Both the position numbers and the translations under genes were made by a program. Shown here piece by piece: positions 48,694 to 64,000 of a DNA stretch of 64,000 nucleotides. The stretch comes from Escherichia phage UE-S1: sequence record ON568341.1. One strand, written 5' to 3'. A model generated the notes under the pieces. That model saw only the letters and a list, made by a program, of their open reading frames with translations. It ran no database searches and had not been told where the DNA came from. Each line of letters opens with the position of its first letter. Position 1 is the first letter of the stretch.

Positions 48694-48722
48694 GGGTTGA
48701 CTTAGGTCAACCCTTTTTTTAT
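48694..48722 (+). terminator. rho-independent terminator (GGGTTGAC-ttag-GTCAACCC)
   Basis: Perfect 8-bp stem followed by TTTTTTTT; related to hairpins at 57163, 59958, 61299. Confidence 0.75.
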
Positions 48723-56976: not shown

Positions 56977-57168
56977 ATGCTGATTTATAAATGTGATAAT
57001 ATTCGTGTTCTACAACATCCTTATCTTCAAATCTTTGATGTGCAGATGTTCATGGAAGGTGATAATCCGAGAACCTATGGACGTAAGTATGATTATTTCA
57101 CGGTCAAGCAGTGCAACAACATTGATGAAGTACGACGATTAGTACATGAACTCCAAAACAAAGGTTGA
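56977..57168 (+). CDS. hypothetical protein (63 aa)
   Basis: Track ORF. Confidence 0.4.
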   Translation: MLIYKCDNIRVLQHPYLQIFDVQMFMEGDNPRTYGRKYDYFTVKQCNNIDEVRRLVHELQNKG

Positions 57169-57187
57169 CTTCGGTCAGCCTTTTTTG
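57161..57187 (+). terminator. terminator GGTTGAC-ttcg-GTCAGCC (copy 1) with embedded promoter hexamers
   Basis: Hairpin then TTTTTTG; TTGACT in the 5' arm lies 17 nt upstream of TTATAAT. Confidence 0.75.
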
Positions 57188-59957: not shown

Positions 59958-59984
59958 GGGTTGACTTCGGTCAGCCTTTTTTTA
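59958..59984 (+). terminator. terminator GGGTTGAC-ttcg-GTCAGCC (copy 2)
   Basis: Identical hairpin followed by TTTTTTT. Confidence 0.75.
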
Positions 59985-61298: not shown

Positions 61299-61323
61299 GG
61301 TTGACTTCGGTCAGCCTTTTTTG
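61299..61323 (+). terminator. terminator GGTTGAC-ttcg-GTCAGCC (copy 3)
   Basis: Identical hairpin followed by TTTTTTG. Confidence 0.75.
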
Positions 61324-61358
61324 TTATCATAGCTTTCCTAACTACAAAGGATGACGTG

Positions 61359-62000
61359 ATGACTAAGCAAGAAATATTCAAAACATTAATTGACATTTTA
61401 CGTTCATCTAAAACTCGTTGTGCAATGGAGTTTGATATTCCTTACGCTGAACGAGTCATCTTTCCACAAGTAAAAGCGGCAGGTCTTACTTTACTTGGTA
61501 TGGGGATGTACTCTGTAGTAGTTGAACATAAAAACTATCCAGGTCGTGCATTTAAAGTAACCACGTCACGATGGGATGGTTTTCGTGCTTATGCAAAGTA
61601 CTGTATTGATAACACAGGAACTAAGTTTCTTCCTGTAATATACAGTGCAAATGAACAAGGAAACTTTGGATGGTATGAAATGGATAAGTACTACCCTATC
61701 ATTAAACAAAAAAATAATTATGATGACTTTGTTAGTACTAAAATTGGAGATTTGTATTCGTATGCACATGCTGGTCAGTACGCAACTTCAGTGAATGAAC
61801 TGCGTGGAAATTCAGAAGAGATTGCCATTGCAACTGTTGCAGCTAACATAATGAAAGAGTTTCATGGTCGTTTTGTACCAGACATTCATTCCAGTAATGT
61901 GATGATGGATAAAGATGGAAATTTATTCATCACTGACCCTATTTCGTGTGATGTACGTCGAGAAATACCAATCACTGAAGAAGACCCAATTTTTTATTGA
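61359..62000 (+). CDS. protein-kinase-like fold protein (atypical kinase)
   Basis: Gly-rich GMGMYSVVV, Lys in AFKV, catalytic-loop-like DIHSSNVMMD, DFG-like FITDP. Confidence 0.5.
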   Translation: MTKQEIFKTLIDILRSSKTRCAMEFDIPYAERVIFPQVKAAGLTLLGMGMYSVVVEHKNYPGRAFKVTTSRWDGFRAYAKYCIDNTGTKFLPVIYSANEQGNFGWYEMDKYYPIIKQKNNYDDFVSTKIGDLYSYAHAGQYATSVNELRGNSEEIAIATVAANIMKEFHGRFVPDIHSSNVMMDKDGNLFITDPISCDVRREIPITEEDPIFY

Positions 62001-62025
62001 CAGAACTTGTGTTCTGGTGTATATT
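61997..62025 (+). promoter_or_regulatory. sigma70-like promoter (TTGACA-N17-TATATT)
   Basis: Upstream of ORF 62064. Confidence 0.5.
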
Positions 62026-62063
62026 AAGTGAATTATAAACAAATTGTGACACAGGATTAAATC

Positions 62064-62345
62064 ATGCGTTCATTTGAAAACTTAATAGGTAAACTTCTTT
62101 TATCTGAAATTGAAGAAGACGTTAAGGAATTATGCAAATCAAAAAGTTACATTCATTTGGATGAACTGTTTGTTAAGTACGGAGAGATTAGTTTTAAATC
62201 ATTATTTGTTTTTACTATGAAAGTACATAGTTTAAAGCACTTCGATTTAAGTTATAAAAATGATCAACCAAATCTATATCATATGTATTATCTCAAGAAT
62301 ATAGAAGAAGCTCATGCATTATTTTCTGAATATCTGAAGGTATAA
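62064..62345 (+). CDS. hypothetical protein (93 aa)
   Basis: Track ORF. Confidence 0.45.
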   Translation: MRSFENLIGKLLLSEIEEDVKELCKSKSYIHLDELFVKYGEISFKSLFVFTMKVHSLKHFDLSYKNDQPNLYHMYYLKNIEEAHALFSEYLKV

Positions 62346-62346
62346 A

Positions 62347-62685
62347 ATGGAACAATATTTTGAATTAATTAATAAAGTGTCATTCTATGTAGTGTCATTG
62401 ATGTGGGTTTATTTCATGTTTTGCTACATTATTGCATTCTTCCGATACACTACTTTATATGAACGTATCTATTATGATGCACCGATTTCATTCTTGGTAT
62501 TCTGTGCGTGTACGTGGGGAATATTAGAAGTACTGATATGTGGATATAGTACTGATGAATTAAATCTGGTATCGGTATTGACTGGGTTATCACTTGGCGT
62601 TATGATATCTTTCTTTCCAGTATGGTTGTTCTTTGAGCTGTTCCATCGCATTGATGTATGGCGTTCTAATATCCCTGAAAAATAA
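62347..62685 (+). CDS. small membrane protein, tandem paralog 1 of 3 (112 aa)
   Basis: FRYTTLYERIYYDAP ... WRSNIPEK. Confidence 0.5.
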   Translation: MEQYFELINKVSFYVVSLMWVYFMFCYIIAFFRYTTLYERIYYDAPISFLVFCACTWGILEVLICGYSTDELNLVSVLTGLSLGVMISFFPVWLFFELFHRIDVWRSNIPEK

Positions 62686-62694
62686 GGATTGATA

Positions 62695-63036
62695 ATGATT
62701 TATTACACTAACGTGTTTGCCTATGCTGTTGCTTGCATTTACATTGTTTACTTCTTATTTGGTGGAGTGCTTTACTTCTTTAAGTACAAAACACTGTTTA
62801 ATAGGATGTATCCAAATCACCCTATCGTAGTTGTACTTTTGATTCTTTCTGTTTCCCAAATAATCGTTGAAACTACAATGGGTATCAGTAGTGTACATTA
62901 TAGCTTCGGTACTATAGTAATTATTACTATGCTTATTGCATACATTTTAGTACTTGGATATGGTATATTTGGTAATGTTGGAATGAAAATGTATCATCGA
63001 ATTAAAACCTTACGTGATAATCTACCGGAGCGTTAA
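62695..63036 (+). CDS. small membrane protein, tandem paralog 2 of 3 (~113 aa)
   Basis: FKYKTLFNRMYPNHP ... LRDNLPER; ATG 62695 after AAGGA. Confidence 0.5.
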   Translation: MIYYTNVFAYAVACIYIVYFLFGGVLYFFKYKTLFNRMYPNHPIVVVLLILSVSQIIVETTMGISSVHYSFGTIVIITMLIAYILVLGYGIFGNVGMKMYHRIKTLRDNLPER

Positions 63037-63037
63037 T

Positions 63038-63382
63038 ATGTATAATTTAAACCTAATCTCATATATTATAACAACACTGTTTACATTCTATGCCTTTGTT
63101 GGTATAATCCTACTGTACTTTAAATTTTATAAAGTGTTTAACCGTTTCTATCCTTCAATGGAGAATGAGTTTTTCTTTGTGTTGTACGTAGGTTACACAT
63201 TAATGGCTACATGTTTCACTGTAGCCGATGGTGTCATCGGCATTAAAACTGATGCACCAAATGGTAGTACGCTGGTTGCATTTATTCTTACCGGATTCCT
63301 TGCAACTTATATTGCCTTCATTACAACATGGTCAGTAGTTGAATTTCTCTTGCGACTACGTAAGAATATGCCGAATCGATAG
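63038..63382 (+). CDS. small membrane protein, tandem paralog 3 of 3 (~114 aa)
   Basis: FKFYKVFNRFYPSME ... LRKNMPNR; ATG 63038 after GGAG. Confidence 0.5.
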   Translation: MYNLNLISYIITTLFTFYAFVGIILLYFKFYKVFNRFYPSMENEFFFVLYVGYTLMATCFTVADGVIGIKTDAPNGSTLVAFILTGFLATYIAFITTWSVVEFLLRLRKNMPNR

Positions 63383-63391
63383 GAGACATAT

Positions 63392-63646
63392 ATGTTTGCA
63401 TTGCGTAATAAAGACACTAAAGAATTATTATGTATTGATACCGTATGGGATTGTGCGGGTTCAACTACTGTTCTTGAAGAAGGAACTGGTTGTTGTGTGT
63501 TTGTTGTTCAAGATAAGAATATTCTCGAATCATTACTTGCTGAGTTCAATGCTGGTGATAATCCTAATAGTACTGAATACCCTGAGATTATCAATCCAGC
63601 ACCTCCAGGTTCTTATGAAATCCTACCACTATGGGTGTTGAAATAA
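63392..63646 (+). CDS. hypothetical protein (84 aa)
   Basis: AGGAGA RBS. Confidence 0.45.
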   Translation: MFALRNKDTKELLCIDTVWDCAGSTTVLEEGTGCCVFVVQDKNILESLLAEFNAGDNPNSTEYPEIINPAPPGSYEILPLWVLK

Positions 63647-64000
63647 TGCGACAAATGTACAAAGTAACCGAGCTAAACAAGCGTCTGGTTAAACAATCTA
63701 TGTTTGAGGATAAAGAGTCTTACTATAACTTTAAACGTGCTGTAGAGGCTGCTATCCACATTCAGAAGCTTAAAGAACGTGGTTTTATTATTCTGGAAAA
63801 TGGTTCGGAAGTTGTAACGGATGACTTTAGTGTAGCGTTTGATGTTTCACCTGATGGCACGCTATCAATGCCCCGCTTAGGAACTGGAAACATGACTGTT
63901 TGGGTTGGCTTCACTATGGGGAATGTACCTGGTACTGTGTACGTAGATGATGCGGAATTGAAAGACAGTTTCAAAAACTTATCTTATCTGGAACCACAAT
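63646..64000 (+). CDS. hypothetical protein, 3'-truncated by window end
   Basis: Own translation from ATG 63646 (MRQMYKVTELNKRLVKQSMFEDKESYY...) runs open to position 64000. Confidence 0.4.
   Translation, partial: MRQMYKVTELNKRLVKQSMFEDKESYYNFKRAVEAAIHIQKLKERGFIILENGSEVVTDDFSVAFDVSPDGTLSMPRLGTGNMTVWVGFTMGNVPGTVYVDDAELKDSFKNLSYLEPQ

Follow-up and report, generated by a model that had tools for sequence, protein, structure and literature searches.

An ancient tandem family of small, predicted inner-membrane proteins in Rak2-like jumbo phages, with three diverged copies in Escherichia phage UE-S1

Introduction

In T4-like phages, the small early proteins of the inner membrane that are not part of the virion act, where their role is known, chiefly in superinfection immunity or lysis inhibition; T4 Imm is made early and has 83 amino acids (aa). 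About 80% of jumbo-phage genes are without known function. Jumbo-phage genomes are known to grow by tandem duplication, and a tandem gene array of more than 30 copies has been described in Escherichia phage 121Q (Hua et al., 2017; PMC5646251). The present work concerns three adjacent genes, here named A, B and C, at positions 62347–63382 of a 64,000-nucleotide (nt) stretch of Escherichia phage UE-S1 (sequence record ON568341.1). The whole stretch is referred to as the window, and all positions are counted from its first letter.

The corresponding genes have already been deposited: 121Q gp207–gp209 and G17_00104–G17_00106 are every one annotated `hypothetical protein'. They go unmentioned in the genome papers on Sharanji, fEgEco12, phAPEC6 and CBB, in the capsid paper of Hua et al. 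and in the jumbo-phage survey of Iyer et al. The literature searched describes no inner-membrane exclusion or takeover protein of the Rak2-like group. The array is a real and fairly ordinary paralogue expansion among hypothetical genes, and its description is correct but unremarkable as such. What is added here is the extent of the family in Rak2-like phages, the series of one to four copies per locus, the predicted topology, the conserved sites, the promoter sequences that bear on early expression and the arguments against a holin role.

Paralogy of A, B and C

Gene A (62347–62685, 112 aa), gene B (62695–63036, 113 aa) and gene C (63038–63382, 114 aa) lie on the plus strand, start with ATG and each encode three predicted transmembrane (TM) helices. 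They are orthologous to 121Q gp207, gp208 and gp209 and to G17_00106, G17_00105 and G17_00104, respectively. The ATG starts used are those annotated in 121Q and G17; the starts of the longest open reading frames (ORFs) lie further upstream for B (TTG at 62689) and C (GTG at 63014). Read from the sequence, Shine–Dalgarno-like GAAGG, AAGGA or GGAG motifs are found 6–8 nt 5′ of the three starts.

A first-pass annotation, made from the letters of the window, had described three adjacent ORFs of about 113 aa that share the architecture of a small membrane protein, a conserved box after the first hydrophobic segment and a C-terminal motif. All of these features are present, at the same place and on one strand. 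The box following TM1 reads FRYTTLYERIYY in A, FKYKTLFNRMYP in B and FKFYKVFNRFYP in C, with A alone finishing in Y-Y and not Y-P, and the C-terminal motif reads WRSNIPEK, LRDNLPER and LRKNMPNR, respectively. The common architecture is seen as three hydrophobic helices in each copy and in an AlphaFold2 (AF2) model of B.

The similarity among the copies extends beyond hydrophobic composition and holds in pairwise alignment, in segment-preserving shuffles and in profile–profile comparison. Global identity among the three proteins is only 16–26%. Composition-adjusted BLASTP gave E values of 2e-11 for A–B (31% identity), 5e-6 for B–C and 8e-5 for A–C, and the local alignment scores of the pairs lay 7–14 standard deviations above those of fully shuffled sequences. 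Since TM proteins may resemble each other by composition alone, shuffling was also confined to each TM or loop segment; the observed scores were still 4.8–9.8 standard deviations above the shuffles, only 0–1 of 2000 of which equalled them. Profiles of the separate orthologue groups were aligned end to end by hhalign with E values of 4.7e-16 (A–B), 1.4e-12 (B–C) and 2.3e-10 (A–C). Finally, a hidden Markov model (HMM) was built from distant relatives only (RaK2, Munch, EJP2, Hallingskeid and the metagenomic contig L011), with no A-, B- or C-group sequence in it, and found all three ORFs at 3e-11 to 4e-13. No fourth copy was found elsewhere in the 64-kb window using enlarged family HMMs. A, B and C arose by ancient tandem duplication within a family of ~110-aa proteins, and we are highly confident of the descriptive part of this account, namely paralogy, family and retention.

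Family membership and copy number

All three proteins match phrog_19285 (unknown function) over their full length (A, 2.7e-53; B, 3.7e-56; C, 4e-4). It is the only significant PHROGs family and is matched by 18 of the 18 members of the family alignment. Searches of Pfam, NCBIfam and PADLOC with the three proteins and 18–28 family members gave nothing above noise. The UniRef label DUF3784, attached to the cluster of the RaK2 homologue, was not reproduced: no DUF3784 match appeared when Pfam was scanned with the RaK2 protein and 12 further distant members (E up to 10) or with the members of the 18-sequence alignment. A word-indexed search of 5.8 billion proteins returned 11 clusters, and an exhaustive HMMER profile search of 1.84 billion representatives returned just 12 proteins at E ≤ 1e-3.

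Copies were counted by tracing family matches and syntenic markers through public phage genomes. Three copies in tandem are found in 121Q, G17, ph0011, TH47, BF17 and the window; Turkey5 also has three, the metagenomic contig L009 has four and contig L011 has two. EJP2 carries one copy at the locus together with a tandem pair ~10 kb away, and Erwinia phage Hallingskeid carries a tandem pair. Munch and fENko-Kae01 have one copy, as probably do 7t3, SE_PL and PHA46, and RaK2 (ORF280), K64-1 and Muenster have one match each; for K64-1, Muenster, 7t3, SE_PL and PHA46 the count stands for one tblastn match per record rather than for an HMM scan at the locus. Members are restricted to Rak2-like jumbo phages that infect Enterobacteriaceae. 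The orthologues in 121Q, PBECO4, G17, ph0011 and BF17 share 72–99% amino-acid identity, with gene order and flanking genes unchanged. The comparison of copy number among related phages that the first-pass annotation had proposed gives one to four copies per locus, with three or four in the Asteriusvirus lineages, so that its `tandem triplication' is right for the three copies here and too narrow for the family, of which it is one state among loci of one to four copies and at least four subtypes.

In Turkey5-type loci, membrane-protein copies 2 and 3 are separated by a 117-aa lysine-rich soluble ORF (L004 3639–3992; L009 2494–2847), for which no family match was found. At a second locus, EJP2 (L021 2142–3178) and Hallingskeid (L022 1824–3189) each carry a family pair, and Munch (L015 3203–3925) has an unrelated-looking 110-aa membrane protein in its place. 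The membrane genes at this second locus lie at most ~320 nt 3′ of a gene for a signal-peptide protein of ~110–125 aa, directly adjacent in EJP2 and Munch and with two small ORFs between in Hallingskeid; the signal-peptide proteins of the three phages appear to be mutually related, and the second locus may be a separate conserved module.

Predicted topology and conserved positions

Hydropathy analysis gave three hydrophobic segments in A, B and C alike. Lys and Arg are concentrated in loop 1 and in the C-terminal tail, with a neutral or acidic N-terminus and loop 2, a distribution that by the positive-inside rule places the N-terminus outside and the C-terminus inside. Each protein is therefore predicted to span the inner membrane three times, with a periplasmic N-terminus and a cytoplasmic C-terminus. 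The AF2 model of B, computed from 21 diverse family members, has a mean predicted local distance difference test score (pLDDT) of 86.9 and a predicted template-modelling score (pTM) of 0.63. Its helices comprise residues 2–28, 32–38 (a short helix in loop 1), 42–62 and 71–108, the last of which suggests that TM3 runs on into a cytoplasmic helix. A model of A computed from a 12-sequence alignment was unusable (pLDDT 58.5).

In an alignment of 21 nonredundant members, the best-conserved positions (B numbering) are Tyr19, Leu26, Phe28, Phe29, Lys30, Tyr31, Leu34, Arg37, Tyr39, Gly63, Ile64, Arg107, Pro111, Glu112 and Arg113. Conservation is thus strongest on the predicted cytoplasmic face, in the FFKYxTLxxRxY loop after TM1 and in the extreme C-terminal RxNxPE(R/K). 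In addition, an Asp or Glu is read from the alignment 3–5 residues before the end of TM2 in 19 of the 21 members, near the predicted periplasmic end or leaflet of the membrane. What remains of TM2, together with periplasmic loop 2 and TM3, differs from subtype to subtype.

A Foldseek search of the PDB with the predicted structure gave no matches. In BFVD, only the PBECO4 paralogue and weakly matching membrane proteins of the same length from CBB and GAP32 (E 0.6–9.6) were found. With a membrane protein of three helices, searches by fold are not informative.

Age, selection and exchange

In a neighbour-joining tree, the family divides into at least four subtypes (A, B, C and the Turkey5 D type), each with orthologues in several lineages. 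A, B and C are each nearer to their own orthologues in 121Q-, BF17- and Turkey5-type phages than to one another. This grouping bears out the suggestion that the duplication is old; the presence of subtype orthologues in several lineages indicates that the duplications predate the split of the Asteriusvirus lineages and that the array gains and loses members.

The ratio of nonsynonymous to synonymous substitution rates (dN/dS) was calculated by the Nei–Gojobori method for the window against 121Q, ph0011 and BF17. Values of 0.13–0.17 were obtained for A, 0.03–0.14 for B and 0.06–0.30 for C, with dS reaching 0.8 in these comparisons; the values for neighbouring genes were similar or higher. Retention of the copies, as the first-pass annotation had supposed, is thus reflected in purifying selection on all three (dN/dS 0.03–0.30 over four pairs of genomes compared). 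Reading frames and start sites are intact in more than 30 genomes. By these measures, A, B and C are all functional genes and not pseudogenes.

The segment from ~62,200 to 62,720, comprising gene A and its immediate flanks, is 95–98% identical to ph0011 and 81–89% identical to 121Q. From the end of B onward (62,900–64,000) the window is 96–100% identical to 121Q. The window is a mosaic isolate, with a ph0011-like gene A and a 121Q-like gene C, and this pattern of identity shows that paralogue A was exchanged alone, as a gene-sized recombination cassette within the array.

Organization and transcription of the locus

The region 61300–64000 is 92% identical to 121Q over its full length and is about equally close to PBECO4, G17, Sharanji, phAPEC6 and other ~350-kb Asteriusvirus jumbo phages; by sequence, the window belongs to an Asteriusvirus-like (121Q/PBECO4) jumbo coliphage. 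All of the window genes described here are on the plus strand. The array is preceded by a gp206-like gene (62064–62345), the first of the operon, which encodes a 93-aa soluble protein (phrog_37917, unknown function). It lies directly 5′ of the array in every Asteriusvirus-type locus examined, and this linkage is gone in RaK2 and Munch. Downstream of C are a gp210-like gene (63392–63646; 84-aa soluble protein, phrog_8563, unknown function) and the 5′ part of a gp211-like gene (63646–64000; phrog_7672, unknown function), which extends past the end of the window and is a syntenic marker of the region out to RaK2 and Munch. The gaps are 1 nt (gp206-like/A), 9 nt (A/B), 1 nt (B/C) and 9 nt (C/gp210-like), and the ATG of the gp211-like gene overlaps the stop codon of the gp210-like gene (TAATG); this spacing and overlap indicate a tightly packed operon. 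The 84-aa gp210-like gene (63392–63646) and 121Q gp216 (L001 8218–8487) both match phrog_8563 and form a second small paralogue pair of the same operon, ~2 kb apart.

Upstream of the operon lies a T7 gp0.7-like protein kinase gene (61356–62000), orthologous to 121Q gp205 and matching phrog_15752 at 1.7e-89. It is missing from the locus in BF17-type relatives, which yet keep the trio. Apart from the kinase, only a distant denV has a known function among the neighbours.

A near-consensus σ70 promoter (TTGACA-17-TATATT, 11/12 consensus positions, 61997–62025, plus strand) lies directly 5′ of the gp206-like gene, and the kinase stop codon falls within its −35 hexamer. 121Q, G17 and ph0011 keep the element, and Turkey5 and L009 have it in the perfect form TTGACA-17-TATAAT; the promoter is still conserved in these two although their A-type protein is just ~42% identical. 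Its spacer contains a palindrome, CAGAAC-TTGT-GTTCTG (62001–62016, plus strand), which reads CAGAAC-TGAT-GTTCTG in 121Q; at this position Turkey5 and L009 read CAGATAC...GTACTG, in which one change appears to compensate for another. Two roles are conceivable for the palindrome, that of an operator and that of a hairpin at the 3′ end of the kinase message. A second promoter-like site, also near consensus (TTTACA-17-TATAAT with an extended −10 TG), was found at 63080–63108, 42 nt inside gene C.

A search of the whole window for TTGACA-N16–18-TATAAT at 11/12 or better gave 34 sites on the plus strand, 12 of them perfect (12/12), and two on the minus strand; 2.6 promoter-like sites are expected from shuffles. 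By its promoter content, the 64-kb stretch resembles a dense early region transcribed by the host RNA polymerase. In G17, terminators are annotated before the kinase gene and after gp216, with none between. At the position equivalent to the first of these, 5′ of the kinase gene, the window has a hairpin and T-run cassette (61299–61330, plus strand), where the transcription unit, going by the G17 annotation, has its upstream limit; the TTGACT of the cassette sequence, GGTTGACTTCGGTCAGCCTTTTTT, doubles as the −35 of a promoter-like site at 61301–61330. This 24-nt G+C-rich sequence occurs exactly at 57163–57186, 59959–59982 and 61299–61322, and with three mismatches at 48695–48718; by chance no occurrence would be expected. 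The sequence may combine a terminator and a promoter in one unit between early genes.

The gp0.7 kinase is an early gene in T7. The conserved σ70 promoter, the excess of plus-strand sites, the adjoining gp0.7-like kinase gene and the unbroken unit together lead us to infer early transcription of the operon by the unmodified RNA polymerase of the host. The literature searched yielded no transcriptome for the genus Asteriusvirus.

Functional interpretation

We tentatively propose, with a probability of roughly 0.3, that A, B and C act as early inner-membrane gatekeepers of the superinfection-immunity type, resembling T4 Imm in their logic though not in sequence. Shortly after infection the proteins would enter the inner membrane and stop a later-arriving phage from moving its DNA across it. 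A function common to all copies, for example contact with a partner or oligomerization, would fall to the shared cytoplasmic face, and the divergent TM2–loop–TM3 module would give each paralogue its own target. Tandem duplication, together with cassette exchange between co-infecting jumbo phages, would widen the range of competitors excluded. The proposal is based on the small size of the proteins, their predicted location in the inner membrane, the early timing suggested for the operon, the restriction of the family to one phage lineage and the variable copy number with cassette exchange; of the phage proteins characterised so far, immunity proteins such as T4 Imm fit this combination best. 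A copy number of one to four per locus, at least four subtypes and the solo exchange of A are arms-race-like dynamics.

Several points weigh against an immunity role. Neither Pfam nor PHROGs gave a match to an annotated immunity or exclusion family. Whole-gene dN/dS is without positive selection and is not above that of neighbouring genes. Conservation peaks on the predicted cytoplasmic side, which an exclusion protein acting on parts of the incoming phage in the periplasm would not obviously need, and the early timing has the promoter sequence as its sole basis. The family is also found as a single copy conserved over phages of different host genera, which a housekeeping role in the phage cycle would fit too. 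The cytoplasmic-side conservation and the lack of positive selection keep two other explanations close, namely takeover effectors and subunits of a membrane complex. Of the guesses made in the first-pass annotation, superinfection exclusion and defence evasion at the membrane are compatible with the data, the holin/antiholin one being disfavoured.

As host-takeover or anti-defence effectors, a possible though doubtful role, each paralogue would inhibit or redirect a different host inner-membrane protein alongside the kinase; the host protein might be an abortive-infection effector bound to the membrane, a transporter, a protease or part of the divisome. The early-type promoter and the position beside a gp0.7-like kinase suit such a role, as do the differing subtype composition among phages and the conserved cytoplasmic face, which could meet a host or phage partner in the cytoplasm. 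The kinase has been proposed to disarm bacterial defences in work cited by the Sharanji paper (PMC11895373), and the filamentous growth of Sharanji-infected cells (PMC11895373) suggests that the phage group has some early division inhibitor. Linkage to the kinase is however not conserved, the BF17-type phages keeping the trio without it; nor was there a match to PADLOC or to a known anti-defence family, no target can be named and filamentation is not tied to A, B or C. Rather less probable is that the three proteins are subunits of a complex serving the phage's own cycle, an ancestral homo-oligomer that has become an A–B–C hetero-oligomer of approximately nine helices and acts as a viroporin-like channel or as an anchor for a soluble partner such as the gp206-like protein. 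The fixed A–B–C order and 1–9 nt spacing suggest translational coupling, and purifying selection on all three copies, the common cytoplasmic motifs, the conserved membrane-embedded acidic residue, the gp206-like gene directly 5′ of the array in all Asteriusvirus-type loci and conservation of the family across host genera would all be expected of such a complex. The composition of the array speaks otherwise: in Turkey5 the B-type copy is missing and a D-type copy is present, L009 carries four copies, and one is found at this locus in EJP2, RaK2 and Munch. This variable subtype composition, together with the swapping of A singly between lineages, argues against an obligate A–B–C heterotrimer, and in RaK2 and Munch the gp206 linkage is absent as well.

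A holin role is disfavoured, and we consider it very unlikely that the trio is a class-I-like set of holins, pinholins or antiholins that times lysis and releases a signal-arrest-release (SAR) endolysin. Size, the predicted three-TM N-out/C-in topology and the basic C-terminal tail do resemble those of λ S-type holins, and no canonical holin lies beside the endolysin gp532 of 121Q: no three-TM protein was found among its neighbours, only single-TM ORFs of 43 and 61 aa. The near-consensus σ70 promoter argues for early expression, however, and in 121Q gp207–gp209 lie at 105.8–106.9 kb, ~148 kb from the SAR-type endolysin gp532 at 254.2 kb. The neighbours of the trio are the kinase and small proteins of unknown function and not a lysis cassette. 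There was no match to a Pfam holin, and the PHROGs holin families gave just two single-member matches (E 0.41 and 1.1); a dual start of the Met-Lys-Met type with an added positive charge is also lacking. In fEgEco12, moreover, a separate 220-aa T4-T-like protein is annotated as holin from an HHpred match to the structure of T4 holin T (PMC13070987, supplement). This protein (L020 853–1515, minus strand) has one N-terminal TM helix and a ~195-aa periplasmic domain, as in T4 T, and no Pfam match was found for it, so that the lysis system of this phage group is assigned only tentatively. That the three genes are decaying duplicates or spurious ORFs, for which only the lack of any assigned function speaks, is almost certainly wrong given dN/dS of 0.03–0.30 at dS up to 0.8, intact frames and starts in more than 30 genomes and motifs conserved across genera.

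A broader and bolder reading, improbable as a whole, would be that the family is an unrecognised early inner-membrane system of Rak2-like jumbo phages, acting either as the superinfection-immunity determinant that they are missing or as a small hetero-oligomeric channel. The specificity module formed by TM2, periplasmic loop and TM3 would be diversified by repeated duplication in tandem and by exchange of gene-sized cassettes between giant phages in the same cell, with the FFKY loop and C-terminal PER tail contacting a common partner. Three conserved sites are open to test (the FFKY loop, the acidic residue of TM2 and the C-terminal PER). With the natural series of one to four copies and the delimited family, they make a tractable candidate in Sharanji, which infects E. 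coli K-12. If it is true that the proteins exclude competing phages, they would be relevant to the combination of jumbo phages in therapeutic cocktails.

Comparison with known systems

Class I holins such as λ S are alike in length (~105–110 aa), in the three predicted TM helices with N-out/C-in topology and in the basic cytoplasmic C-terminus. They differ in that here the promoter is of an early type, no endolysin or spanin genes adjoin, three paralogues are co-expressed, and a holin-family match and a dual start are both lacking. T4 Imm is a small inner-membrane protein, as A, B and C are predicted to be, and is likewise phage-lineage specific and not associated with the virion. It is, in contrast, an 83-aa single-copy protein, whereas the present proteins have 112–114 aa and occur as one to four diverged copies, and no sequence similarity between Imm and the family was found in the Pfam or PHROGs libraries. 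From 121Q gp207–gp209 and phrog_19285 the present genes show no difference in kind, the window being a new mosaic isolate. With jumbo-phage tandem arrays such as the >30-copy array of 121Q, the locus shares genome growth by tandem duplication and the same phage lineage; it differs in having three copies with 16–26% global identity, each with orthologues in other lineages. This strong divergence and the presence of own orthologues for each copy mark the array as old and stabilised and not as a recent expansion.

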